Origin: Bacteroidota bacterium
GTDB taxonomy: Bacteria > Bacteroidota > Bacteroidia > Bacteroidales > PUMT01
NCBI GenBank assembly: GCA_003554865.1
Contig: PWHJ01000050.1
Span: forward strand, 38,981-102,980
Direction: 5' to 3'
Length of the DNA stretch: 64,000 nucleotides
Positions 43,005 through 60,819 of the stretch are shown one piece after another. The translations under genes were made by a program, and so were the position numbers. Numbering within the stretch: the stretch's first letter is position 1; each line of letters starts with the position of its first letter. Under the pieces are notes generated by a model. The model was given only the letters and a program-made list of their open reading frames with translations. It was not told the origin of the DNA and made no database searches.

Positions 43005-43148
43005 GACATAATGTTTTTAATTTGTATTACTGTTTTTCTCACCTTTATGACGCAGGTTTTTTTAATGGTTACAAAAAAAAACAAAAATTTGCATAAATAG
43101 ATCCAAATTTGTAACCGTCAGGGAGGAGTTACGTCATATATTTGTAAA

Positions 43149-43712
43149 ATGGAGTACAGGGAAGACGAATATTACATTGGCAGGGTCCTCGACGGCAATA
43201 CAGACGCTTACGGGTTTCTTGTGGAGAAGCACAAAAACCTTGCCTTTACCATTGCCCTTCGTATTGCCGGAAACAGGGAGGATGCCGAGGAGATAGCCCA
43301 GGATGCCTTTGTAAAAGTTTACCGTTCATTGAAAAATTTCAGGGGCAAGGCGAAATTTACCACATGGCTTTACCGTATTGTTTATAACACGGCGGTTTCA
43401 AAAGTAAGGATAAAAAAAAGATATGTACCCATAGATGAGGCCGGCAGGGGGGATATATACGAAAAGCTTGAAAAGCCGGAAGAGGAGGTGAGCAGTGAAA
43501 AGGAAAGGAAAATGAAAGCCCTTGAGAAGGCAATGGAAGTTTTGCCGGATGATGAAAAAATATTGGTTCAGCTATATTACTACAGTGAGACTCCCGTAAA
43601 GGAGCTTGCAAAAGTGGCGGGCATTTCACAGGCAAATGTAAAGGTTAAGCTTTTCAGGGCAAGGAAGAAGCTTTATGAAGAAATTCAGAGAAACAATGAG
43701 ATATATGCATAA
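43149..43712 (+). CDS. ECF-type RNA polymerase sigma factor
   Basis: 187 aa. It has region 2 (DAEEIAQDAFVKVYRSL, FTTWLYRIVYNTA) and a region 4 HTH (VKELAKVAGISQANVKVKLFRARKKL). Confidence 0.85.
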   Translation: MEYREDEYYIGRVLDGNTDAYGFLVEKHKNLAFTIALRIAGNREDAEEIAQDAFVKVYRSLKNFRGKAKFTTWLYRIVYNTAVSKVRIKKRYVPIDEAGRGDIYEKLEKPEEEVSSEKERKMKALEKAMEVLPDDEKILVQLYYYSETPVKELAKVAGISQANVKVKLFRARKKLYEEIQRNNEIYA

Positions 43713-44136
43713 TAAATTATCAACTATGAGCAGGCTTGATGGAAAGGAAGATAAATTTTTAAGGGACCTTTTCCGTGAAACCGGGCACAAGCAGGCTTCA
43801 GAGGATTTCACCGGTAAGGTTATGGAAAGGGTGCGGTTAGAGACGGTCAAAAAGGAAGAACCCTGGATTGCCAGTGAATGGGTGCTCTTTTTTGTTGCCG
43901 CCGCCTCTTTGGCCGCCCTCTGGGTTTTCGGTAGTCTGATACCGGGGTTTGAAGGTGTTTTAAAAACTTTTGCCGGGAGTGCCGGTATCCTCGAGGAGGG
44001 TTTCAGCAGGCTTTTTTCATATGCCGGCTTCAACGGATATTTTATTTTTGTTGCTGCTGCCGTTTTACTTCCCCTGTTGCTTGATTATTTTTTGAGGCAG
44101 CTGCAAAAAAAGGATGTTAAAGTCCGTATCCCCTGA
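43705..44136 (+). CDS. Putative membrane anti-sigma factor partner
   Basis: ATG 43705 overlaps the sigma stop (ATGCATAA). It has two hydrophobic segments. The start could be as early as 43675. Confidence 0.5.
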   Translation: MHNKLSTMSRLDGKEDKFLRDLFRETGHKQASEDFTGKVMERVRLETVKKEEPWIASEWVLFFVAAASLAALWVFGSLIPGFEGVLKTFAGSAGILEEGFSRLFSYAGFNGYFIFVAAAVLLPLLLDYFLRQLQKKDVKVRIP

Positions 44137-44303: not shown

Positions 44304-44924
44304 GTGAAGAGCCTTTCAGATTCTGAAATTTATTATGGTATTCGCAATAAAGACAATGATGTTTTGGAATATCTGTATAAAAAATTTTTCCCTTATATCC
44401 TTAAAGTTGTAAAAGAAAGCGGGGGAGATGAGCATGATGCCCGTGATCTGTTCCAGGATGCGGTAGTTGCCATCTACAAGCAGGTCCGCGATGACAAGGT
44501 TCGCATAAGAGAGTCTTTTTCGGCATATTTTACAGTAATGTGCAGGTACCTCTGGTATGATGCAAAGGGTAGTAATGCCTCAACAAAGGAGGTCCTTCAA
44601 ACCCGGCTGAGAGATAATGTTGAAGTGGCATCTGAGCAGGAAGAGCCTTATGAAGACAGATCAAAGCATATTGCCGGGGATCTTCAGCTCCGCAGGGAAA
44701 AAATATACCAGAGGTGCTACCGGAAGTTGGCAACCGACTGCAAAAAGGTTCTTACAATGTTTTACAGGAAACACTCCTATGTTCAAATAGCCTGCAGGAT
44801 GGGCTATGCCAGCAGCGGTTATGCAAGGAGAAAAAAATACCTTTGCTGGAGGCACTTAATGGATCTTATCAAAAATGACAAGGAATACAAAAATCTCACG
44901 GAAGGGAGAGAGAGTGAAGAGTGA
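44304..44924 (+). CDS. Sigma-70-family-like transcription factor (divergent ECF-like)
   Basis: 206 aa with a GTG start. It has a region-2-like segment (DARDLFQDAVVAIYKQV, FSAYFTVMCRYLWYD) and a C-terminal HTH-like segment (SYVQIACRMGYASSGYARRKKYLC). Confidence 0.6.
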   Translation: MKSLSDSEIYYGIRNKDNDVLEYLYKKFFPYILKVVKESGGDEHDARDLFQDAVVAIYKQVRDDKVRIRESFSAYFTVMCRYLWYDAKGSNASTKEVLQTRLRDNVEVASEQEEPYEDRSKHIAGDLQLRREKIYQRCYRKLATDCKKVLTMFYRKHSYVQIACRMGYASSGYARRKKYLCWRHLMDLIKNDKEYKNLTEGRESEE

Positions 44925-44930
44925 TCCCGG

Positions 44931-47777
44931 TCATTTTCTGCGGCGCCTGAGAGTGTAAACCAGGACACCCACGGCAATGAGGGCACCAATTCCTCCAATC
45001 ACTCCCCGGCTCAGGTAAGGAGATTTTACAGCACTGCGGGGGTTACCTATGCATACGTAGCCTCCCCAGAAATAAGGATGCGCTCTAAGCATATCGGCAT
45101 TATCAAGAAACTCCAGCCTTGCATGCCTCAATGCTTCATCTGTGCGCTTTCCATTTCTTATGTGAGAGTAAAAATTTTCCATTATCCCTACACCCGACTT
45201 GTCTTCAATCTCCCAAAGAGTCATTACTATGGAAGGAACTCCCGCATAAAGGAAACCCCGTGCCAGACTCATTATGCCTTCTCCTTTAAGCAGTTTCCCG
45301 TAACCGCTGTTGCAGGAGCTCAGCACCGCAAGTCTGGCGTTGAGCCTGAGATTGTAAATTTCATATGTGTTCAGCAGTCCGTCTTCGGCCTCAGATTCTC
45401 CGGTATCGGAGAATGCCAGCTTTGAGAACATGGGGTTCTCATCGTCTATTATCGTGTGCATTGCAAGGTGAATGAAACGGTAATGGGGTGCATTGCTTTT
45501 GAAATTTGTATTGCAGGCATCTTCGTCCAGCAGTGCTTTGCCGCCGAATATATCGGCGGCCATCTGCGCCTCCTCCCTTGCACCCGGAAGAGGGGTAAGT
45601 GTTTGCCGGGCCAGGCGGTAACGGTTAACTTCATCCGGGGAGTCTTCGTTATCCATCCCTTCGTACATAGGGGCGAACGCTATCATGTCGCTTGCGCTTT
45701 CGGTGCCGTGCCCGAGGGTTTCTGTCCATATCGTAGCCGAGTATGCATAGCTCAGGGGATGTTCCCTTAATAGGTAAGGAAGGGTTGCATAGTTTGGCTC
45801 GCCTTGTTCGTTGTTTTCGGTTGTAAGCAGCTCGTAGGGAAAGTAGGAGAGAACGCTGGAGGGTATAATTATCAGTTTTTTGTTCTTTATTCTGGACTGA
45901 AAAGGCTCTATCAGTGTCTTGTAGAGTCGGTAGGAAGTTTCGTTGAATTTTTTGAAGCTTGCCCTTGCATCAGTTGAAACTGAGCTGAAGTTCATTATGT
46001 CAAGAAAATCTTGCACGGTTTCCTCAAGATTGTATGAAAATTCAACATTTTCCCATTGGGCGCCCTTTTTATCGATCAAAAATATGTGTACCGCGGAATC
46101 GCCTGTGCTGTATGACAAAAGAACCTCATCTTTTGAAAGGTGGGATTTGACAGTGCTTATGCAGGTGATACGCGGATCATATTTAAGGTTGAAATATTCT
46201 GGATATTCCTCCTCAAGCTGCTCTTCAAGGCTTTGTATTTGCCCGTTCAGCTCGAATATTCTTTTTTCCCAGTTGGCAATTCTCTGTTCGTTCGGTTTTG
46301 TTTTCTGCCTTTCTTCATATACAAGCTCCCTGTAAGCGGTAAGGGTCCGTTTCAGATTTTCTTCCTCTTCCCTTAATGATTTGGGAACACCGCCAAACTC
46401 CAGGGCTTCAATATTCCGCATTGATGCAAGCAGTACAGCAGCCTTGCTTCTTTCGGAAAAATTAAATCCCTTTTCAAGGTGATCAGGATTTCCCGATTTT
46501 CTGTAGAGTTGCTTTGCCGCATTCATTGCCCGGGGATAGATGTCGGTTTCGCTTTGCGAGAGTTCGAGACGGCTTTCTTCGGTCTGGTATCCCATTCTCA
46601 AATATTCCAGTACTTCTATAGCTTTGTCGTAAGCTTCAATGCTGTATTGAAGGTATCTGGAATTATCCTCTTTTTCTCCCAGCAATTTTAAAACATTGGC
46701 CTTACGTGAGAGCGTTTCATAGAAGTAGGCTTCTGAGATTACATCTTCCCTTTCCGGATTATCCCCCCAATATCCTGATTTGTAATCTGTGCTCACAGCA
46801 ATAAGGGATTGCTGGTACATACCTGCGGCCGTATGAAGCTGGTCAAGCTCTTCGTAAACCCCTCCGATATTCATCAGTATTCTGGACTTGATGGGACTTC
46901 TTTCGCCAAAGTTATGCGAGGCTACTTCGAGGGCTTTTTCATACAATTTCATTGCCCTTTCATAATCGAGGGTAACGTTGGCATGCAAAAGTCCGTAATT
47001 GAGGTAATTGTTTGCAAGTCCGCCCCACATCTCCCCGCGCCTTTCAATGGTTGATTCTATGGCCATATCAAAATAACGGGCCGACTCTTCGGCATTTTCC
47101 ATATAGTAGTGGCTTACCGCGAGGTTACCTGCAGGCACCCTTATTGCCGAAGGGGAGTGTTTTTCCCTTATCCTGAGTGATCTTTCATAATAATCTATTG
47201 CTTTTTTTTGTTCGCCCTGTTCGCTGTAAAGCAGTCCGATATTATTGTAAAGTGATGCCAGCCAGTTCGGGTTCTCCTCATGTGCTTCAAAAATTGCAAG
47301 TGCTCTTTGGTAGTGCTGGAGGGCGGTAGAAAAGTCGCGCTCCTGCCGGAGTATATTACCCTGATTCTGGTAAACAGCTCCCAGGTTAATGTGGTCCGAG
47401 CCGTAATTCTCCTCCAGGATTACCTGGGCTGAATCGTAATACTTAACCGCCTCCCTGCGCCTTAAGAGTACTCGGTTTACTACGCCAAGATTGGAATAAA
47501 CCCCTGCAATTTCCGAAGCTTCTGTTTCTGTCATGTCCCTGTATTTATTCAGGGCTTTAATAAATGAGATGGTTGCCTCTTCAAAAAGGCCCTCGTTGGA
47601 TTGGCTGAAACCTTGACTGTAATATTGGAGTGCTGAATCTGCAATTGATTCTTCATCCGATTCATTTGCCCGGAGATCCTTTGAATATCCATAAAATGAG
47701 AAGAGCCCAATGGCAACAAAAATTAATGTGTAAAAAACAAACCTGGTGCAAAAATTTTTAAGGGCTTTCTTTCTCAT
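44931..47777 (-). CDS. TPR-repeat / CHAT-domain (caspase-like) protein with N- and C-terminal hydrophobic anchors
   Basis: 948 aa with about eight TPR-like repeats (recurrent A..Y/N...G...Y...A). A coiled-coil segment follows. The CHAT domain carries His (FIHLAMHT) and Cys (VLSSCNSG). The C-terminal TM GVIGGIGALIAVGVLVYTL is followed by RRRRK. Confidence 0.85.
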   Translation of the reverse strand: MRKKALKNFCTRFVFYTLIFVAIGLFSFYGYSKDLRANESDEESIADSALQYYSQGFSQSNEGLFEEATISFIKALNKYRDMTETEASEIAGVYSNLGVVNRVLLRRREAVKYYDSAQVILEENYGSDHINLGAVYQNQGNILRQERDFSTALQHYQRALAIFEAHEENPNWLASLYNNIGLLYSEQGEQKKAIDYYERSLRIREKHSPSAIRVPAGNLAVSHYYMENAEESARYFDMAIESTIERRGEMWGGLANNYLNYGLLHANVTLDYERAMKLYEKALEVASHNFGERSPIKSRILMNIGGVYEELDQLHTAAGMYQQSLIAVSTDYKSGYWGDNPEREDVISEAYFYETLSRKANVLKLLGEKEDNSRYLQYSIEAYDKAIEVLEYLRMGYQTEESRLELSQSETDIYPRAMNAAKQLYRKSGNPDHLEKGFNFSERSKAAVLLASMRNIEALEFGGVPKSLREEEENLKRTLTAYRELVYEERQKTKPNEQRIANWEKRIFELNGQIQSLEEQLEEEYPEYFNLKYDPRITCISTVKSHLSKDEVLLSYSTGDSAVHIFLIDKKGAQWENVEFSYNLEETVQDFLDIMNFSSVSTDARASFKKFNETSYRLYKTLIEPFQSRIKNKKLIIIPSSVLSYFPYELLTTENNEQGEPNYATLPYLLREHPLSYAYSATIWTETLGHGTESASDMIAFAPMYEGMDNEDSPDEVNRYRLARQTLTPLPGAREEAQMAADIFGGKALLDEDACNTNFKSNAPHYRFIHLAMHTIIDDENPMFSKLAFSDTGESEAEDGLLNTYEIYNLRLNARLAVLSSCNSGYGKLLKGEGIMSLARGFLYAGVPSIVMTLWEIEDKSGVGIMENFYSHIRNGKRTDEALRHARLEFLDNADMLRAHPYFWGGYVCIGNPRSAVKSPYLSRGVIGGIGALIAVGVLVYTLRRRRK

Positions 47778-47811
47778 AACGGAAAACAGGATTAAGCTGA
47801 TTTTTCCCCTC

Positions 47812-47819
47812 CAAACATA
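47812..47819 (-). promoter_or_regulatory. Candidate TAnnTTTG -7 box for the CHAT gene
   Basis: The minus strand reads TATGTTTG, 35 nt upstream of the ATG at 47777. Confidence 0.35.
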
Positions 47820-48164
47820 TTAAAATTTTTCGATTTATTCTGATTGCTTTGCAATATATTTGTTTTTAAGCTTATAAATATATATTTTGCCTTAATAAGA
47901 TGTTGTTCGACCAATTTTAGTTTTTGGTCGAATCAGAAAGGGTGAAAACTTTACGGTCATTCCGCATAAAACACAATTTTTACAGGCATTCTTCAAGTCT
48001 CATGTTTACAACAAAATAGCAATTGTGCTTATTTAGAACACATTAAAACTTTTCTCTTTTTTTTTGTCACAAATTTCGGGTTTTCCCACAGTTAAGTGAA
48101 ATCAAAATTAACTGGAAAATTAACAGAAATAACATTAAAATATTAACCTGAAATTTTTTAAGTC

Positions 48165-48374
48165 ATGAAAACTACAGACAACTTTTTCAGCCTTCTTGCC
48201 GGACTTCCCGGTGAAACAGTTTTGACCCGCAACGAGCTCAGAGCAATAAAAGGTGGCAGCACAAACGGATTGCCTGCCGGAGAAGATGAGGATATTTTAA
48301 TACCCCCGCCGGATCATGATGAAGAAAAAGATGACGAAGATGAAGATGAGGGTGGAGACGATAACGAGGATTAA
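48165..48374 (+). CDS. Double-glycine-leader precursor peptide with a hyper-acidic core
   Basis: 69 aa. The leader is MKTTDNFFSLLAGLPGETVLTRNELRAIKGG, with the GG codons at 48252..48257. The core is STNGLPAGEDEDILIPPPDHDEEKDDEDEDEGGDDNED. A cognate C39-ABC exporter lies downstream. Confidence 0.7.
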   Translation: MKTTDNFFSLLAGLPGETVLTRNELRAIKGGSTNGLPAGEDEDILIPPPDHDEEKDDEDEDEGGDDNED

Positions 48375-48407
48375 ATAAAACAGACTTCGGATAAAGCGAT
48401 TCTTTTA

Positions 48408-48455
48408 AAACGGGAGACGCCGGCATAAACTGAGACCTGAGCCGGCTTCCCGTTT
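48408..48455 (+). terminator. Two-tier stem-loop after the peptide gene (possible terminator or attenuator)
   Basis: The outer 8-bp stem is AAACGGGA/TCCCGTTT and the inner 6-bp stem is GCCGGC/GCCGGC, with a 16-nt loop. It starts 34 nt after the stop and has no long U tract. Confidence 0.45.
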
Positions 48456-48799
48456 GGAAGAGCAAACCGGTTTGCACTTAAAGTGTTCTGGTGCAATACT
48501 TAACCGGAGGGAAGTTATTTGAATTGGTTTTTAAGCTGCATTGTTTGGGGTTGGCCTGAAGCCTCTCTGGCTTCTTTGGTGGATTGCAGGTTAAATAATG
48601 CGGTTGAGCTGACCGGGCTGGTGTGTAAAGACTGTAATGGTTTTGTTGCTGAAAGGAACCGTGACAGTTGGCCTGGCCGGATCAAACCGCCCGGAACATT
48701 TTGCGTAATAATAATTGGCACCCTGTAAGCCCAAAGTAGTCCTGCATTTGTTAAAAGGGCAACTTTTTTGGGCGAATGAGGTAAATAAAGTAAAGGGTA

Positions 48800-48807
48800 T
48801 AATTTTG
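48800..48807 (+). promoter_or_regulatory. Candidate TAnnTTTG -7 box upstream of the anti-sigma-like TPR gene
   Basis: TAATTTTG lies 64 nt upstream of ATG 48871. Confidence 0.35.
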
Positions 48808-48870
48808 GCTGGAAAAGAAATAAAATATGGAAAATTCCAAGTATAAATTAATGTTCAAAACCTTTTTAAA

Positions 48871-49641
48871 ATGAAAAAAAAGCTTAATTATCAGGCGTTT
48901 ATTGACAAATTCCTGAACGGCGAAATGGAGGGTGAAGAACTTCAGTGGTTCAGAGGGGAAATGGAGGTTAACCCACGCCTCTCTGAAGAGGTGAGGCTTC
49001 AGCAGGAGGTTAGTGAAGCTATCGTCGATGAGGATGTAATGGAATTGCGTGATCAGATGAGCAGGTTGTTTGACAGTGATCGCAGGACCATCAAGGAAGA
49101 AAGCGGAAAGAGGGTCAGCCCGACCGTTGTCAAGCTGGCAGCCGCTTCCATGATTGCCGTATTGATGGCGATCGCATCGTTGTTCCATTTTTACGGGCAC
49201 AATGATGCCACGGAAGATCTTTTCTCCATGCACTATGAAACATATGATGGTGTGATGAATGTGCGTTCAGGGGATGCCCATGTGGATGAAATTATGACCG
49301 GTGCAATTATGAAGTACGAGAACGGAAAGTTCGAAGAGGCTGCTTCAATGTTTGAAGATGTGCTCAAAGCCGACCCGGGTAATGTTGCATCCAGGTTCTA
49401 TGCCGGAATTTCCCATATGGAAACGGAAAGGTATCAAAAAGCCTCCGGAATGCTAACCGAGGTAATTGATCACAATGATAACCTTTTCGTGGAGAATGCA
49501 AGGTGGTATCTCGGACTCTGCTATCTGAAGATGGAAAACCCGGAAAAGGCCAGGGAGCAGTTTGGCTCTTTAGCCGAAGGTGAAGGATTTTACAGTGATG
49601 AGGCGGCAAAGATACTTGACAGGCTCCGGGAAAACGGATAG
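48871..49641 (+). CDS. Single-pass membrane protein: anti-sigma-like N-domain, TM helix, TPR C-domain
   Basis: 256 aa. The N-terminus is FIDKFLNGEMEGEELQWFRGEMEVNPRLSEEVRLQQEV. The TM helix is VVKLAAASMIAVLMAIASLF. C-terminal TPR-like repeats follow (FEEAASMFEDVLKADPGN..., ARWYLGLCYLKMENPEKA). Confidence 0.6.
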   Translation: MKKKLNYQAFIDKFLNGEMEGEELQWFRGEMEVNPRLSEEVRLQQEVSEAIVDEDVMELRDQMSRLFDSDRRTIKEESGKRVSPTVVKLAAASMIAVLMAIASLFHFYGHNDATEDLFSMHYETYDGVMNVRSGDAHVDEIMTGAIMKYENGKFEEAASMFEDVLKADPGNVASRFYAGISHMETERYQKASGMLTEVIDHNDNLFVENARWYLGLCYLKMENPEKAREQFGSLAEGEGFYSDEAAKILDRLRENG

Positions 49642-49764: not shown

Positions 49765-50589
49765 ATGCCAATTTATAGTGAAAACAGTAAGCTATTATCT
49801 TCCATAAAGGAGCTGAAGGAGGAGCTCGAGAGAAAAAACAGGGAGTTCGACTGCATCAGGTCGGTTTTTCTCTCCAATGTTTCTCACGAGATCAGAACTC
49901 CCATGAATGCAATTGTCGGTTTTGCAAATTTGCTGGCGGATGATGATATGAGTGTAGAGGATAAAAAGGAATTTATTCGCCATATCAATGATAACAGTGA
50001 AATGCTCCTGAGATTGATAGATAATATGATAGATCTGACAATGCTGCAGTCGGGAAAAATTAAGCTTGAAAATAAAAGTTTCTCCATTAACTCGTTAATA
50101 GATGAGCTTTGCAGTGATTACAGGAATTCTGAAACTGTCAGAAGCAAAGGATTGCAGATAATGACCTCGGCAAAGCGGGACAACCCCGCGGAAGCTGTAA
50201 GTGATCCGCGCCGCCTTAAATCTGCAATGCAGCATCTTATAGACAGCGCCATAAGGAATACCCAGGAAGGATTCGTCAAGTTCGGTTACTTCATGGAAGA
50301 AAACAGCCTTCACTTTTTTATAAGATATACCGGATGTGCATTTGATCTTGACGAATTTCAGGGAGATCCCGTAGATGCTCAGGATTATACGGGAAGTATG
50401 AACAACTCCGGCCTTTCGGTTGTAATTGCAAAAAGTATTGTGGAGATAATGAGAGGCAGTGTGTGGAGTGAAAACGGGATAAAAGATCATCCTGCACTGC
50501 ACTTTACAATACCTTTTAAAAAGAGTACAGGATTAATGAACAGGTTCTATAAACTTGGAATTAAAACACGAAAAAATATAGCAATTTAA
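49765..50589 (+). CDS. Soluble histidine-kinase-like protein (HisKA plus degenerate HATPase domain)
   Basis: It has a coiled-coil N-terminus and an H-box (SNVSHEIRTPMNAIVGF). An N-box-like segment (HLIDSAIRNT) is present. The G1/G2 boxes are replaced by RYTGCAF and NNSGLSV. There is no TM segment. The ORF track begins at TTG 49714, and ATG 49765 is the first Met. Confidence 0.7.
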   Translation: MPIYSENSKLLSSIKELKEELERKNREFDCIRSVFLSNVSHEIRTPMNAIVGFANLLADDDMSVEDKKEFIRHINDNSEMLLRLIDNMIDLTMLQSGKIKLENKSFSINSLIDELCSDYRNSETVRSKGLQIMTSAKRDNPAEAVSDPRRLKSAMQHLIDSAIRNTQEGFVKFGYFMEENSLHFFIRYTGCAFDLDEFQGDPVDAQDYTGSMNNSGLSVVIAKSIVEIMRGSVWSENGIKDHPALHFTIPFKKSTGLMNRFYKLGIKTRKNIAI

Positions 50590-50764: not shown

Positions 50765-52957
50765 ATGGGCTTTCCGCATTATAAGCAACCCGATGCAATG
50801 GATTGCGGTCCTACCTGCCTGAGGATGGTGGCCGCATTTTATGGTAAACGATACTCCCTGGCAACTCTTCGCGACAGGAGCTATATAACGCGCGAAGGTG
50901 TCAGTCTTCTCGGTATCAGTCAGGCCGCCGAAAGTATAGGTTTCAGGACCCTGGGAGTTAAGCTAACTTTTGAGCAACTCACCCGCGAAGCCCGGCTTCC
51001 TGCGATTGTTCACTGGAATCAGGACCACTTTGTTGTACTCTTTAAAGTCACCGGCAAAAAGGGGAGAGAAAAGCTTCATGTGGCGGATCCCGCCGGGGGG
51101 ATTGCCCGGTTCACCCGTGAGGAGTTTATGCGTTGCTGGGCCTCAACTGCAGAAGAGGATCGCGAAAAAGGGATTGTCCTGCTGCTTGAGCCGACACCTG
51201 ATTTTCATGCGGCTGAAGATGACAAAAAAAACAAATCTTCTTTCGGCTTTCTCTTTTCTTATCTCTCCCCCTACAGGAAGCTGGTTGTTCAGCTTTTTCT
51301 GGGTCTGCTCCTGGGCAGTTTGCTGCAGCTAATATTTCCTTTTCTCACGCAAAGTATTGTCGACTACGGTATAGGGAACCAAAATATCAGCTTTATCTAT
51401 CTGGTTCTCATTGCACAATTGGTGCTGACAGTCAGCAGGGCTTCGGTCGACTTTATACGCAACTGGATACTCCTGCATATCGGGGTGCGTATCAATATAT
51501 CACTGATATCAGACTTTCTTATTAAGCTAATGAGATTGCCCATGAAATTTTTTGATACAAAGCTCACGGGCGATCTTCTTCAGCGTATAGGTGACCACAG
51601 GCGTATAGAGACTTTCCTTACGGGCACTACACTCAGGATACTTTTCTCCTTTGTAAATCTTTTCATATTCGGACTGGTTCTTTTGTACTACAACAGGCTT
51701 ATTTTTGCAGTTTTTTTTATCGGCAGCGCATTGTATGCCGGGTGGGTATGGATATTCCTGAAAAGAAGGGAGGAACTCGACTATAAAAGGTTTACACAGC
51801 AATCGGCGCACCAAAGCAACCTTATTCAGCTTATACAGGGCATGCAGGAAATAAAGCTGCAGGGTTGCGAACAACAAAAAAGGTGGGAGTGGGAACAGAT
51901 CCGTGCACGGCTTTTCCGGATCAGTGTAAAGGGACTGGCTCTGAGGCAATATCAGCGATCGGGGGCACTTATTTTGAATGAGATGAAAAATATCTTTATT
52001 ACCGTGATAGCGGCAACTGCAGTGGTGGAGGGGACAATGACGCTGGGAATGATGCTTGCCGTGCAGTATATAATCGGACAACTTAACAGTCCAATAGAAC
52101 AGATCATAGGCTTTTTCAATACAACACAGGATGCAAGGATCAGTCTTGAAAGGCTTGGTGAGGTACATAACCGTCCCGATGAAGAGGATCCCGGGGAGTC
52201 CAGAATACAGGAAATACCCCCTGCGGCATCGCTGAAGGCAAATTCGCTTTCATTTCAGTATGAGGGACCGGAATCTGAAATGGTGCTTGACGATGTCTCT
52301 TTTACAATTCCTAATGGCGGCCAGACAGCCATAGTGGGAACTTCGGGCAGCGGAAAAACCACCCTTATCAGGCTTTTGCTGGGATTTTACCCGCCGGTAA
52401 AAGGGGAGATACTCCTGGGTAATAACCGGCTGGATGTGTTCAGCTTGAGAATGTGGCGAAGAAATTGCGGAGTGGTAATGCAGGACGGATATATCTTTTC
52501 CGATACAATAGCAGGCAACATTGCACCGGGTGAGGAAAAAATTGATAAGGTGAGGCTGCTCGATGCTGCGCGTACGGCAAATATATCCGATTTTATCGAG
52601 GAGCTCCCCCTTGGATACAATACAAAAATAGGAAGTGAGGGCCACGGACTCAGTCAGGGTCAAAAACAAAGACTTCTGATTGCAAGAGCCGTCTACAAGG
52701 ATCCCTCCTATATCTTTTTCGACGAGGCTACCAATGCTCTGGATGCCAACAATGAAAAGGTTATCATGGAAAACCTGCAGGAGTTTTTCAAAGGGAAAAC
52801 GGTGGTTTTTGTGGCTCACAGGCTTAGCACCGTCAAGAATGCCGACCATATAGTAGTTCTGGAAAAAGGAAAAGTAGCGGAAACGGGCACTCATAAAGAA
52901 CTTACAGAAAAACGCGGGGCCTATTATACTCTGGTTAAAAATCAGTTGGAATTGTAA
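50765..52957 (+). CDS. Peptidase-C39-domain ABC exporter (PCAT; bacteriocin-type processing/export ATPase)
   Basis: 730 aa. The C39 active-site context is YKQPDAMDCGPTCLRM (Gln, Cys) and VHWNQDHFVVL...VADP (His, Asp). It has a 6-TM ABC domain, Walker A (GTSGSGKTT), the signature LSQGQKQR and Walker B (IFFDEAT). Confidence 0.92.
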   Translation: MGFPHYKQPDAMDCGPTCLRMVAAFYGKRYSLATLRDRSYITREGVSLLGISQAAESIGFRTLGVKLTFEQLTREARLPAIVHWNQDHFVVLFKVTGKKGREKLHVADPAGGIARFTREEFMRCWASTAEEDREKGIVLLLEPTPDFHAAEDDKKNKSSFGFLFSYLSPYRKLVVQLFLGLLLGSLLQLIFPFLTQSIVDYGIGNQNISFIYLVLIAQLVLTVSRASVDFIRNWILLHIGVRINISLISDFLIKLMRLPMKFFDTKLTGDLLQRIGDHRRIETFLTGTTLRILFSFVNLFIFGLVLLYYNRLIFAVFFIGSALYAGWVWIFLKRREELDYKRFTQQSAHQSNLIQLIQGMQEIKLQGCEQQKRWEWEQIRARLFRISVKGLALRQYQRSGALILNEMKNIFITVIAATAVVEGTMTLGMMLAVQYIIGQLNSPIEQIIGFFNTTQDARISLERLGEVHNRPDEEDPGESRIQEIPPAASLKANSLSFQYEGPESEMVLDDVSFTIPNGGQTAIVGTSGSGKTTLIRLLLGFYPPVKGEILLGNNRLDVFSLRMWRRNCGVVMQDGYIFSDTIAGNIAPGEEKIDKVRLLDAARTANISDFIEELPLGYNTKIGSEGHGLSQGQKQRLLIARAVYKDPSYIFFDEATNALDANNEKVIMENLQEFFKGKTVVFVAHRLSTVKNADHIVVLEKGKVAETGTHKELTEKRGAYYTLVKNQLEL

Positions 52958-52978: not shown

Positions 52979-54349
52979 ATGGATCAGACAAATGACAAAT
53001 CCAACCTGGAGAAAAAAGCGGAAAAGATCACAATCCGCTCCGAAGAGGTTCAGGATATTCTGGGCACTCCGCCCGGATGGCTGGTAAGATGGGGTATAGG
53101 AGTAATGTTTGCAGCGGTTATGATAGTACTTCTGGGAAGCGGGTTTTTCATGTACCCCGATACGGTGAAGGCCCCGGTTATAATTACAACCGAAAATCCC
53201 CCCTCCGTGATTGCTGCAAGAGCCGGCGGCAGACTGGAAACTATTTTCAATGAGGACGGAAAATCTGTAAACCGTAATGATACTCTTGCAGTGATTGAAA
53301 ACCCGGCAAGCTACAGGGATGTTTTCAGATTGCGCACTATTTTAAAAGAACTTAATTCTAAAGAGAGGCCGGAGGAGTTTTTGTTGAATTTTTCCTTTCC
53401 CGGCGATATGGTCCTCGGTGAGATACAGCCAGCATACAACCGCTTGCTGAAGGCTTCCCTGGAATATCGGCTGTTTGACCGCCAGGATCTGTATGCAAAA
53501 AAAATAGGCGCACTTGAAGATGAGCTGAAAGAGTATGAAGATTATCACAATATTTTGAAGTCAAGGGAAAGGCTTGTATTGGAGGAGCTTGATCTGATCA
53601 GAAAACAGTTTGCAAGGGATTCGGCCCTTTATGCAAACGATGTTATTTCCTCCTCCGACTATGAAAAGGCCCGCTCTGAAGTGCTGGCTGCAGAAAAGGA
53701 GGTGGAGTCGGCCAGGGTGTCTCTTTCAAATGCCGCCGTTACCATTGCCCGGCTTAAACATAATATAACCGATACCATGATGGAGGAGGAGGAGAGACGG
53801 CAGGATCTGCTGACCGAGCTTAACGGCTCACTCAGGCAACTTGAAAGCTCCATAGCCGAATGGGAAAGGAAGTACCTTATGGTTGCAACTACAGACGGTG
53901 TACTGAATTATGTGATGACATGGAGCGAGCTTCAGGAAGTAAGGGCAGGGGACCCGGTTTTCACAGTTGTGCCACGGGAAATGGGAGAGCTTCAAGGCAG
54001 GCTCATTCTTCCCCAAAGAAGGGCCGGGAAGGTTAGTCCCGGACAAAGGGTCAACATAAAGCTCGACGGGTATCCCTTTATGGAGTACGGCATGCTGGAG
54101 GCACGGGTGGAATCTATTTCCAGCGGACCCCTGGAGGGTGGATTCCCTGTAGTATTGTCGCTTACAAAGGGAGCCGTGACTTCGTATGGTTATGAATTGG
54201 AGGTTGTGAGAGAACTTTCAGGGGAGGCCGAGATCACTACCGAGGAGATGAGCCTTCTGGAACGCCTGGTGAGTCCAATACGCCACCTGCTGAGACACCA
54301 TATTCGGGATGCTGAAAATCAGACAAGCGCCGAAAAGAATGTTCGTTGA
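52979..54349 (+). CDS. HlyD-family membrane-fusion/adaptor protein
   Basis: 456 aa. It has an N-terminal TM (WGIGVMFAAVMIVLLGSGFF), a long coiled-coil hairpin and C-terminal beta domains. It lies 21 nt downstream of the PCAT gene. Confidence 0.85.
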   Translation: MDQTNDKSNLEKKAEKITIRSEEVQDILGTPPGWLVRWGIGVMFAAVMIVLLGSGFFMYPDTVKAPVIITTENPPSVIAARAGGRLETIFNEDGKSVNRNDTLAVIENPASYRDVFRLRTILKELNSKERPEEFLLNFSFPGDMVLGEIQPAYNRLLKASLEYRLFDRQDLYAKKIGALEDELKEYEDYHNILKSRERLVLEELDLIRKQFARDSALYANDVISSSDYEKARSEVLAAEKEVESARVSLSNAAVTIARLKHNITDTMMEEEERRQDLLTELNGSLRQLESSIAEWERKYLMVATTDGVLNYVMTWSELQEVRAGDPVFTVVPREMGELQGRLILPQRRAGKVSPGQRVNIKLDGYPFMEYGMLEARVESISSGPLEGGFPVVLSLTKGAVTSYGYELEVVRELSGEAEITTEEMSLLERLVSPIRHLLRHHIRDAENQTSAEKNVR

Positions 54350-59373: not shown

Positions 59374-60819
59374 ATGAGGTATTACGTGCTTTCCCATATA
59401 ATGAAAGATATACTCAAAAGCAAATTTACCCGGAAGTATCTTTTAAATCAGTTTGACAAGAGCCTTTATAATGCACTGGTGAAAAATGCCACAAGAAACC
59501 TTGTGGAAACCCAGAAAAAAAAGTATCATTTTCTCTCAACAATGCTTAAGGCCTCTGTCAGCAACCTTGAAAAAGGGTATTTTTCCGAAAAGGTCTTCAG
59601 GCGAATAATAAATGTGCTGGTTGAAAATGCTTTTCTTGCAAAGGAAAAGTATAAGGACAAGCTTGAGCAATTCAGGGAAGAGTATGGTGATTATCCTCCC
59701 ACATTTTTGGTGGTTTCTCCTACTCAGGCATGCAATCTCACCTGTGAGGGCTGTTATGCTGCCTCAGGTACAGAAGCAAAACCGTCTATTCCCTATCATA
59801 TTTTCGACCGTATAATATCAGAGGCCAGGGACAAGCTGCACAACCGCTTTATTACAATCAGCGGAGGCGAGCCTTTTATATACAAAAGTGAGGGTAAAAC
59901 ACTGATGGATATATTTGAAAAGTATAATGACATGTTTTTCCTTGTCTATACCAACGGAACCCTCATCACACAAGAGCTGGCCGAAAGAATGGCCGGGGCG
60001 GGTAACGTTACACCGGCTATTTCCGTTGAGGGGTTTGAGAAGGAGACGGATGCGCGCCGCGGAGAGGGAACGCACCGCCGGGTTCTGCAGGCCTTTGAGA
60101 ACCTCAGAAATGCCGGAGTGCCTTTCGGTATATCTGTTACTGCCACAAGCGACAATGCCGGTATTCTGCTTGATGATAAGTTCTATGAATACTTTTTTGA
60201 CAGGGAAAGGGCCATATATATGTGGCAGTTCCAGCTTATGCCAATAGGAAGGAGCAACAAGGCTTTTGAGAAGATGGTTCCGCCGGAAAAACGTGTGGAG
60301 CTTTACAGGAAGTGGGACGAGATGATAACCAATGAAAAGTATTGTGTGGCCGATTTCTGGAACAGCGGTGTTCTTTCAAACGGCTGCCTTGCATACGGAA
60401 GAAGGGGAGGATATCTCCACATTGACTGGAACGGCAATATTATGCCCTGTGTTTTTGTCCCTTATTATGTAGATAATATCTATGATCTTTACAATAACGG
60501 AAAAACCCTTGTGGATGCCCTCTTTTCCGATTTTATGAAAAACGGGCGTAAGTGGATAGACGATTATGGTATGCGCAATCCGAAAGAAGCTAAAAACTGG
60601 CTGATGCCCTGTTCCATACGCGATCATTATGCAAATTTCAGAGAGAATATCCTGCCTGAAAATGCCAAACCGGAAAATGAGCAGGCGCGCGAATCCCTTG
60701 AGGATGATAACTACTACAAGAACCTGGTTCTATACGACGATAGACTGGAAGAGCTAACCGGTGATATTTGGGAAAAGGAATACCTGAAGAAAGAGAGCAC
60801 GGTTGAGCAAAACCGTTAA
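59374..60819 (+). CDS. Radical SAM protein (about 100-aa helical N-extension, SPASM-like Cys-containing C-region)
   Basis: 481 aa. It has a CxxxCxxC motif (ACNLTCEGCYA) and GGEPF. AGGAGGG lies 6 nt upstream of the ATG. Confidence 0.8.
   Translation: MRYYVLSHIMKDILKSKFTRKYLLNQFDKSLYNALVKNATRNLVETQKKKYHFLSTMLKASVSNLEKGYFSEKVFRRIINVLVENAFLAKEKYKDKLEQFREEYGDYPPTFLVVSPTQACNLTCEGCYAASGTEAKPSIPYHIFDRIISEARDKLHNRFITISGGEPFIYKSEGKTLMDIFEKYNDMFFLVYTNGTLITQELAERMAGAGNVTPAISVEGFEKETDARRGEGTHRRVLQAFENLRNAGVPFGISVTATSDNAGILLDDKFYEYFFDRERAIYMWQFQLMPIGRSNKAFEKMVPPEKRVELYRKWDEMITNEKYCVADFWNSGVLSNGCLAYGRRGGYLHIDWNGNIMPCVFVPYYVDNIYDLYNNGKTLVDALFSDFMKNGRKWIDDYGMRNPKEAKNWLMPCSIRDHYANFRENILPENAKPENEQARESLEDDNYYKNLVLYDDRLEELTGDIWEKEYLKKESTVEQNR

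Follow-up and report, generated by a model that had tools for sequence, protein, structure and literature searches.

What does a member of the Bacteroidota export when it places a double-glycine (GG) leader in front of an extremely acidic core? This question is raised by a small gene at 48165..48374 in a 64,000-nucleotide stretch of the genome of a Bacteroidota bacterium (assembly GCA_003554865.1, contig PWHJ01000050.1), hereafter called the window. A sequence-only reading had described the open reading frame (ORF) as a leader for C39 peptidases fused to a 38-residue polyanion, and had offered metal binding, polyanion mimicry and signalling among its possible roles. Our analysis favours the last of these. 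Our preferred reading, held with a probability of roughly 0.55, is that the ORF encodes a precursor whose product is exported, probably without modification, and serves in regulation or signalling. What the peptide family conserves is a short motif, and the gene belongs to a recurrent module with a C39 peptidase-containing ABC transporter (PCAT), a histidine kinase-like protein, an extracytoplasmic function (ECF)-like sigma factor and two membrane proteins with tetratricopeptide repeats (TPR).

The precursor, its leader and its core

The ORF and translation given by the sequence-only reading matched the window letter for letter when we read it again, and the leader positions held as well: Leu20 lies at -12, Glu24-Leu25 at -8/-7, Ile28 at -4 and Gly30-Gly31 at -2/-1. 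The precursor has the following parts.

48165..48374, forward strand: peptide precursor gene, ATG to TAA, 69 codons
48165..48257, forward strand: double-glycine leader, residues 1-31 (MKT...LTRNELRAIKGG), with the consensus at -12/-8/-7/-4 plus GG
48267..48311, forward strand: core motif GLPAGEDEDILIPPP, residues 35-49, of which E42, D43 and I44 are near-invariant in 33 members
48312..48371, forward strand: poly-acidic low-complexity tail DHDEEKDDEDEDEGGDDNED, with Asp or Glu at 15 of 20 residues

The composition reported for the core was also correct. It contains 19 acidic residues (11 Asp and 8 Glu) against one Lys and one His, is free of Cys, and has one Ser and one Thr. Its 38 residues further include four Pro, no Arg and no Phe, Trp or Tyr, and the net charge is about -18. 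The core motif region reads GEDEDILIPPP where most relatives have DEDILIPDP, and the motif-only portion of the core is STNGLPAGEDEDILIPPPD. When the ORFs of the window were scanned for the GG-leader pattern, the peptide gene was the sole match. The NCBIfam model leader_Chryseo matched residues 20-31 weakly (E 0.025), scoring below its cutoff.

The family conserves a short motif

Searched as a single sequence against 5.8 billion proteins, the window peptide matched an identical protein and, at E ~1e-19, two homologues, one of which sits in a fully syntenic 53-kb contig, L001 (L and P numbers are our handles for loci and proteins). A profile built from eight relatives gave 37 proteins, and one of 33 members, searched by full HMMER through 1.84 billion representatives of 50% identity clusters, gave 38 clusters at E <= 1e-3. 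In the family alignment the MKT start was invariant or nearly so, and GG was invariant across 33 relatives. The leaders were variable and terminated in (I/V)RGG. They were followed by a short Gly/Ser-rich stretch and then by a near-invariant block, x-D-E-D-I-L-(I/L)-P-(D/P)-P. The element shared by the family is thus a motif of about nine residues, DEDILIP(D/P)P.

We compared codons pairwise among the window, L001, L003 and L093 over the 15-codon stretch GLPxxEDEDIxIPPP. Synonymous-only changes outnumbered replacements in five of the six pairs and tied with them in the sixth (for example, 5 to 2, 6 to 2 and 5 to 0), which argues that the ORF is a gene under purifying selection. Judged from its sequence, it is a real gene, far beyond a chance ORF. 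The sequence-only reading had left the conservation of the ORF and its leader in syntenic loci as a point to be checked; both are conserved in those that we checked.

The poly-Asp/Glu tail is absent in most family members. Core length is 10-26 residues for most of them, with 20-26 residues prevailing in the family alignment, and four peptides (P0060, P0061, P0063 and P0069) have their C-terminus exactly at ...ILIPD. Counterparts of the 20-residue tail of the window were found only in the closest relatives (P0002, P0003, P0005 and P0006), where they span 14-21 residues and range in sequence from runs of E to mixed D/E. Separate poly-Asp tails occur in L095, P0050, P0052 and P0053. On the alignments, then, the hyper-acidity is real but derived, a clade-local, low-complexity extension of a short conserved motif. 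The description of the peptide as an odd polyanionic cargo therefore survives in part: the cargo is indeed unlike the ordinary GG cargos of Bacteroidota, but the polyanion does not define it.

That difference was quantified against a control set. The 43 cores linked to the module described below had a median length of 18 residues and a median Pro content of 16%; 38 of them were net negative, and Cys occurred in 2. By contrast, 43 control GG cores encoded near other Bacteroidota PCATs had a median length of 44 residues, 2% Pro and a median net charge of -1, with Cys in 33.

Peptide genes also occur as tandem copies, 1-5 across relatives and 2-5 per genome in L084, L086 and L088. Copies within one genome have near-identical cores and differing leaders. 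This is the reverse of the pattern of a toxin or RiPP (ribosomally synthesised and post-translationally modified peptide) library, in which a constant leader precedes a hypervariable core. Dosage of a single signal, on the other hand, predicts tandem copies with near-identical cores.

Two further kinds of peptide were seen in related loci. Sister genomes carry a second GG peptide, pep2 (L001 4451-4660; L003 1080-1295; L093 5636-5851), between the first peptide gene and the gene of the TPR membrane protein. Its leader ends in RIRGG or KIRGG, and an E/K-rich low-complexity spacer leads to the C-terminal motif RRWIYVRPSQMLLPD, (R/K)WIY(V/T/N)RPSQ(M/L)L(L/W)PD. In the 490-nt spacer of the window, 48375..48870, pep2 was absent and no homologue of it was found. 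The same spacer holds a 69-aa TTG-start ORF at 48519..48728, which, lacking both a GG leader and a counterpart in the L001 spacer aligned to it, is unlikely to be a gene. The third GG peptide of a soda-lake contig (L095 1843-2022) has a Lys/Thr-rich and then a Cys-rich insertion (…CVCGVCIIC…) and ends in DDILIPD, retaining the C-terminal motif though the remainder of its core is altered.

A recurrent module around the peptide gene

The genes of the module in the window, apart from the peptide gene, are listed here.

44304..44924, forward strand: divergent ECF-like sigma factor, ECF2 (Sigma70_r2; NCBIfam sigma70-ECF, 44.5 bits against a cutoff of 42.9)
44931..47777, reverse strand: TPR-CHAT protein of 948 aa (Pfam CHAT, 2.6e-57, plus TPR repeats)
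48871..49641, forward strand: TPR membrane protein of 256 aa, the candidate peptide receptor (Pfam TPR; transmembrane segment at ~86-105)
49765..50589, forward strand: soluble histidine kinase-like protein (HisKA and HATPase_c; no hydrophobic segment and no sensor domain)
50765..52957, forward strand: PCAT (Pfam Peptidase_C39, 2.9e-31; ABC_membrane; ABC_tran)
52979..54349, forward strand: HlyD-family membrane fusion protein (Pfam HlyD_3, NCBIfam type_I_hlyD; N-terminal transmembrane segment 32-60)

We scanned for PCATs in one genome per species and then ran tblastn with the window proteins. The set of ECF2, TPR-CHAT, peptide, TPR membrane protein, kinase, PCAT and HlyD genes was recovered in L001, L004, L005 and L047. 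The parts of the module captured on two shorter contigs (L009 and L055) agree with it, and three loci found via the contigs of three further peptides (L084, L086 and L088) have the same order as far as the PCAT gene, where the locus ends.

A peptide-blind survey was then made by choosing loci through alignment of the TPR membrane protein alone. Scanning metagenomes with this protein yielded 529 relatives, and 80 loci were fetched. In 45 of them the kinase gene lies directly downstream of the TPR-protein gene (kinase-linked architecture). In 24 an ECF2-like gene lies directly upstream, with a gap of ~26 nt, and CHAT is nearby, without kinase or PCAT (sigma-linked architecture). The remaining 11 of the 80 are on contigs too short for classification. 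Among loci whose upstream sequence reached 600 nt or more, a GG-leader peptide was found within 1.5 kb upstream in 34/34 of the kinase-linked loci, compared with 0/23 of the sigma-linked ones. Thirteen sigma-linked loci were also checked elsewhere for a GG peptide, and none had one except L114, where it lies downstream of the TPR-protein gene. Across the survey the cores vary together with the receptor: DEDILIPDP, GEEDDILLPDPPP, GPGEEDDILLPDPPP, ...PPIKI, GKIPPPPPDFE, DNDPVVKPQGPPIII and GTDNPIDLVVHPK.

The architecture without a peptide was seen in L101, L106, L110, L113, L120-L123, L127, L149, L158-L160, L162, L165 and L168. In L006, L007 and L025 a trio of sigma, TPR-protein and CHAT genes stands beside PCAT and HlyD genes. 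The peptide-less trio looks like an ancestral sigma / anti-sigma / protease unit to which peptide, kinase and exporter were added later.

Probable export of the peptide

The PCAT gene starts 2.4 kb downstream of the peptide gene on the same strand. The whole of its product can be aligned with PCAT1 and ComA, and the catalytic residues of PCAT1 have their counterparts in its Cys13, His and Asp. The C39 triad is intact, so the transporter is predicted to be catalytically competent. The pairing of a GG-leader precursor with a neighbouring C39 transporter, which the sequence-only reading had put forward, is thus borne out by a PCAT with aligned catalytic residues and an HlyD gene downstream of it. 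C39 domains are known to recognise roughly the last 13 residues of the leader and to tolerate any core (PMC6363468). Given this strong knowledge of the family and the intact catalytic residues, the precursor is probably cut, and its core exported, by the neighbouring PCAT.

Candidate receptors

The protein encoded at 48871..49641 consists of a polar N-terminus of ~80 aa, a single transmembrane helix and a C-terminal TPR domain. In the AlphaFold2 model, pLDDT is 88-95 across the TPR domain. A Foldseek search with the modelled domain gave IpgC, PcrH, SycD, CHIP and RPAP3 among its matches (E 1.6e-4 to 2.5e-3 for the matches listed). The fold search returned TPR matches only, the small N-terminal domain being outside its reach. 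Weak matches to zf-HC2, an anti-sigma N-terminal domain, were found in 4 of 17 homologues of the protein. In the sigma-linked loci the sigma gene is followed by the TPR-protein gene, which is the classic sigma / anti-sigma arrangement.

The second candidate is the TPR-CHAT protein. It has hydrophobic segments at residues 8-32 and 921-944 and a C-terminal RRRRK, and its TPR and CHAT parts are predicted to be periplasmic and to include a caspase-fold protease. H774 and C822 of the CHAT part are invariant among homologues at 42-63% identity, a conservation read from these homologues and not from alignment to a solved CHAT structure; the matches of the protein in a sequence search of the PDB were confined to TPR proteins. 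Topology thus places the TPR domains of both candidate receptors in the periplasm.

Promoter-like elements and the sigma factors

Two promoter-like elements and a hairpin, together with a second sigma factor and its neighbour, enter the argument at this point.

48065..48089, forward strand: promoter-like element TGTCAC-N16-CAC, 76 nt 5' of the peptide ATG
48408..48455, forward strand: hairpin followed by UUU, ~35 nt past the stop codon of the peptide gene
43110..43135, forward strand: ECF-type promoter-like element TGTAACC-N16-CGTC, upstream of ECF1
43149..43712, forward strand: ECF sigma factor, ECF1 (Pfam Sigma70_r2, r4_2 and r4; NCBIfam sigma70-ECF, 111 bits)
43675..44136, forward strand: small membrane protein overlapping the ECF1 stop, with two hydrophobic segments after a polar N-terminus of ~60 aa

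TGTCAC-N16-CAC has no other match in the window. In eight of nine other loci, (T/G)GTCAC-N16-(C/T)AC precedes the first peptide gene while the flanks are otherwise unalignable; L011 retains the TGTCAC half alone. A stricter pattern matched in five loci, each with a single occurrence, which precedes the first tandem copy. The element is laid out like an ECF-type promoter and would presumably act as one.

ECF1 homologues occupy the same module in L004, L005, L009, L084, L086 and L088. TGTAAC(C/T)-N16-CGTC lies before every ECF1 homologue examined (L004, L005, L009, L084, L086-L089, L093 and L095), which suggests autoregulation of ECF1. The small protein at 43675..44136 had no Pfam or NCBIfam match; at the corresponding place, L084, L086 and L088 each have a gene for 138-147 aa, and the protein is a candidate anti-sigma factor for ECF1. 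Since the peptide element differs from the ECF1 element and ECF2 genes carry neither, ECF2 is a candidate reader of the peptide promoter.

As to the hairpin, the 99-nt stretch 48372-48470 folds at -31.1 kcal/mol (z = -3.8), and none of 200 shuffles was as stable. A consensus terminator scan did not call the hairpin at 48408..48455, and Rfam gave no match on 47700..48900. It is a possible terminator or attenuator.

A proposed circuit and the points against it

We propose the following circuit. The peptide gene would be transcribed from the ECF-type promoter TGTCAC-N16-CAC. The C39 domain of the PCAT would cleave the precursor after Gly30-Gly31, and PCAT and HlyD would carry the 38-aa product from the cytoplasm. 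Activity would reside in the conserved motif, with its acidic and hydrophobic residues and its proline, which a periplasmic TPR groove would bind in extended form; the poly-Asp/Glu tail would not be a functional epitope. The likeliest receptor would be the anti-sigma-like membrane protein 48871..49641, with the TPR-CHAT protease as the second candidate. The signal would then pass to the co-transcribed soluble histidine kinase, or lead to release of the ECF-like sigma factor, or both; site-1 cleavage by the CHAT protein, of the kind proposed for DdvA of Myxococcus, might be the route. We infer the binding and output steps from gene co-occurrence, topology and fold. Of the roles originally offered for the peptide, a signal fits the gene neighbourhood, whereas metal binding or polyanion mimicry would be at most a clade-specific extra.

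A broader claim, which we hold only tentatively, is that the locus represents a widespread and undescribed kind of peptide signalling in Bacteroidota. An unmodified, acidic, Pro-rich peptide of 10-40 aa would be exported by the PCAT and read by an anti-sigma-like protein through its periplasmic TPR domain, together with a kinase that lacks a sensor, a periplasmic TPR-CHAT protein and an ECF-like sigma factor, with peptide and receptor diversifying together. Such co-diversification between lineages would resemble the pherotypes of quorum sensing.

Several observations weigh against the signalling circuit. A peptide of 1-4 kDa that has been carried across both membranes does not easily come back to a periplasmic receptor; because of this hard return across the outer membrane, the signal may act in the periplasm of the producer, not between cells. 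The anti-sigma identity of the N-terminus of the candidate receptor rests on the operon structure of the sigma-linked loci and on the weak zf-HC2 matches in 4/17 homologues. No TGTCAC element was found upstream of the ECF2 genes in 37 loci, and autoregulation of ECF2 via TGTCAC was rejected for that reason. No response regulator, with either a receiver or a LytTR domain, was found among the module genes and neighbours scanned. In five clusters of the clade to which the window belongs, the tail has stayed acidic while its sequence turned over, so its composition could be under selection. Finally, the ATP-binding boxes of the kinase are degenerate in the window and L001, whereas they are canonical in L084, L086 and L088.

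The kinase can be described more closely. Its Met start at 49765 is backed by 274-aa gene calls in L001 and L091, and its H-box, SHEIRTP, is conserved. The degenerate boxes of the window and L001 lack the Asn of the N-box and the entire F-box, while the G1 box DxGxG has become RYTGCAF and the G2 box GLGL has become GLSV. In the clade of the window, the protein may be a pseudokinase or a phosphatase.

Alternative explanations

The alternative that fares best, unlikely as we consider it, is that the peptide works on the TPR-CHAT protease as a substrate, pseudo-substrate or activator, with D-E-D as a caspase-like site and the TPR arm for docking. Regulation would then run through protease activity and not through binding to the anti-sigma-like protein. 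D-E-x-D is the consensus of caspase-3/7, to which the D-E-D of the peptide bears a resemblance only. The genes themselves lend this idea some weight: in kinase-linked loci the peptide gene always adjoins the CHAT gene and is divergent from it, the H774/C822 pair is an invariant candidate dyad, the CHAT ectodomain is predicted to be periplasmic, and DdvA provides a precedent for TPR-CHAT in sigma release (PMC11506125). However, the sigma-linked loci hold CHAT and the TPR membrane protein without any peptide, which argues that CHAT functions independently of it, and distant peptides of the module, such as DNDPVVKPQGPPIII and EMVVIPPTLR, are without D-E-D.

It is improbable that the peptide is instead an unmodified bacteriocin, exported by PCAT and HlyD, with the sigma factors, kinase and TPR proteins regulating its production as in class II loci. 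Bacteriocins are classically exported with just this combination of GG leader, PCAT and HlyD, their loci often hold tandem precursor genes, and many other PCAT loci of Bacteroidota bear Cys-rich, toxin-like GG peptides. The cores of this family, on the other hand, are 10-26 aa long, net acidic, Pro-rich and Cys-poor, neither amphipathic nor cationic, and identical among tandem copies. The module (L084, L086, L088) has no recurrent small hydrophobic immunity-like gene. As no other candidate inducer peptide is present, this peptide would need a dual role as toxin and signal. We rejected a class II bacteriocin identity on composition and on the lack of a recurrent immunity-like gene; neither a modification enzyme nor an immunity-like gene was found in the module in the window, L084, L086 and L088.

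There is also little to recommend the view that, in this clade, the peptide works through its polyanionic tail. On that view the secreted tail would chelate or buffer divalent cations in alkaline brine, or mimic a polyanion there, and the conserved motif would be left with recognition or handling only. The grounds for it lie in composition and habitat. Asp and Glu make up 15/20 tail residues, acidity has been kept through turnover in five related clusters, and poly-Asp tails have arisen again in L095, P0050 and P0052. The nearest relatives are metagenome-assembled genomes from sediments of hypersaline Siberian soda lakes; the names of the closest metagenome contigs start with SL_3KL_010_SED, which we take to mean soda-lake sediment. 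Genomes of Bacteroidales, Tenuifilaceae and Perlabentimonas hold the nearest PCATs (74-77% identity). The ectodomain of the candidate receptor (residues 110-256) is unusually acidic in the clade too, with a net charge of -15 in the window and -11 to -18 across the clade (homologues P0039-P0041), compared with -6 to -8 in relatives with tail-less peptides (L004-L088).

Nevertheless, most members of the family have no tail and some end at ILIPD. Length and sequence of the tail drift like slippage-prone GAN repeats, and a single-copy gene for a 4-kDa peptide would chelate bulk cations weakly. The charged stretch of pep2 is mixed E/K and lies before the motif, which makes it spacer-like and not chelator-like. 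We read the tail as a tolerated low-complexity expansion, possibly favoured because it aids solubility, which may be an adaptation to soda-lake brine; a habitat-driven acidification of extracytoplasmic parts may also explain it. A "salt-in" halophile proteome was rejected as the cause of the acidity, the proteins of the window being merely mildly acidic overall (D+E 13.9% against K+R 12.3%, median isoelectric point 6.1). Nor is the polyanionic tail likely to be captured electrostatically, for the ectodomain of the candidate receptor, at a net charge of -15, is negative as well.

Least of all do we expect a RiPP precursor that undergoes modification before export by an enzyme from outside the module, such as the radical SAM protein 59374..60819: although some relatives' leaders reach or approach the TIGR04149 threshold (23.6-26 bits against a 25-bit cutoff) and the radical SAM/SPASM-like gene lies 5 kb past HlyD, the window peptide has no TIGR04149 match at E <= 0.1, relatives' matches cover the leader only, the radical SAM gene stands behind two housekeeping genes, is absent from the L084, L086 and L088 modules, falls below every family cutoff (peptide-maturase and cofactor-maturase) and is probably unrelated to the peptide, and the core is Cys-free with one Ser and one Thr.

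Comparison with known systems

The signalling circuit proposed here invites comparison with the pheromone systems of Gram-positive bacteria. Like ComC/ComAB/ComDE, BlpC/BlpAB/BlpHR and plantaricin A, it has a GG precursor, a dedicated C39 ABC transporter and an accessory protein. It also shares with the Gram-positive GG pheromone systems an adjacent histidine kinase gene and a short, unmodified, linear peptide product, which in our case is predicted. The differences lie on the receiving side. The kinase is soluble and sensor-less, unlike the polytopic membrane kinase of the ComCDE type, and sensing would fall to another protein, which crosses the membrane once and has its TPR domain in the periplasm. 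No LytTR regulator was found in the module; two ECF-type sigma factors and TPR-CHAT are there instead. Furthermore, the host is a diderm member of the Bacteroidota, and the peptide is acidic and Pro-rich where the Gram-positive pheromones are cationic and amphipathic.

Peptide-mediated signalling between cells is well understood in Firmicutes; we know of no characterised equivalent in Bacteroidota, and found none in the literature searched. The module itself was described neither in that literature nor in PADLOC or Rfam, and PADLOC on the window gave no defence-system match apart from generic TPR. If our broader reading is right, Bacteroidota would here have the first peptide autoinducer circuit of their own that is known to us or to the literature searched. 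The weight of the finding lies on the module and on a testable ligand-receptor pair, not on the polyanion as such: ligand motif, candidate receptor ectodomain, putative promoter and exporter are all defined at the locus. The arrangement recurs widely in sediment, soda-lake and wastewater metagenomes.

The receiving side has its closest parallel in DdvS/DdvA of Myxococcus xanthus. There, an ECF sigma factor is paired with a transmembrane anti-sigma factor that carries a periplasmic TPR-CHAT part, which according to the proposal acts as site-1 protease and so sets off regulated intramembrane proteolysis (PMC11506125). DdvA is the only characterised anti-sigma factor with a periplasmic TPR-CHAT part, and its trigger is thought to be phage-derived (PMC11506125). 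The present module is similar in having an ECF sigma factor, an anti-sigma-like membrane protein and a periplasmic TPR-CHAT protein with a candidate His-Cys pair. DdvA, however, is one polypeptide, whereas here there are two separately anchored proteins, 48871..49641 and 44931..47777. The present module also includes a dedicated peptide, predicted to be exported, together with a kinase and a PCAT, and no CRISPR or CBASS genes are nearby. If the circuit exists, it would name a ligand for a TPR-CHAT / ECF unit whose trigger remained open in Myxococcus.

For the proposed mode of binding, IpgC, PcrH and SycD and the TPR modules of CHIP, Hop and RPAP3 are instructive. The modelled periplasmic domain superposes on such modules, which bind short extended peptides, some of them acidic, in a concave groove: IpgC, PcrH and SycD bind translocator peptides, and CHIP and RPAP3 bind the acidic, EEVD-type tails of Hsp70/Hsp90. 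Past the TPR repeats there is no sequence relationship, and here the domain is periplasmic and tethered to the membrane. RRNPP regulators are a more distant comparison. Their TPR domain is cytoplasmic, is joined to a DNA-binding or phosphatase domain and depends on re-import of the peptide by Opp, whereas the TPR domain here lies in the periplasm past a transmembrane helix and is not accompanied by a helix-turn-helix; the scan of the module and its neighbouring genes showed no Opp genes.

Within Bacteroidota, TIGR04149 precursors and bacteroidetocins (PMC6671954) have the common leader type of the phylum (MKT/MK..., ...GG) and export by PCAT and HlyD. The cargos of those families, which contain Cys and exceed ours in length, either go with a radical SAM maturase or function as toxins of the class IIa type; here the cargo is short, Cys-poor, acidic and Pro-rich, in a regulatory neighbourhood. 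No adjacent radical SAM/SPASM maturase was found in the module in the window, L084, L086 and L088. TIGR04149 RiPP identity was rejected on this ground and on the lack of a match in the window. For annotation, this implies that some short ORFs labelled 'natural product precursor' by leader similarity are likely signals, and not RiPPs or toxins.

Further genes at the locus and in its relatives

In three relatives, additional genes stand between the ECF sigma gene and the PCAT gene: two DUF6249 genes, a Peptidase_S9 gene of the prolyl-oligopeptidase type and an esterase gene (L084 14154-18092; L086 14809-18901; L088 14117-18155). A post-proline peptidase near Pro-rich peptides could process or degrade the signal. 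DUF6249, Peptidase_S9 and esterase genes are absent from the module of the window, where HlyD is followed by housekeeping genes.

from 54477, forward strand: housekeeping genes for pyruvate phosphate dikinase (PPDK) and phosphoenolpyruvate carboxykinase (PEPCK), beyond HlyD

The flanks of the locus hold a TrmA-like methyltransferase, ABC-F, SpoU and MscS. The same set flanks the locus in L084, L086 and L088, which points to a chromosomal, vertically inherited locus.

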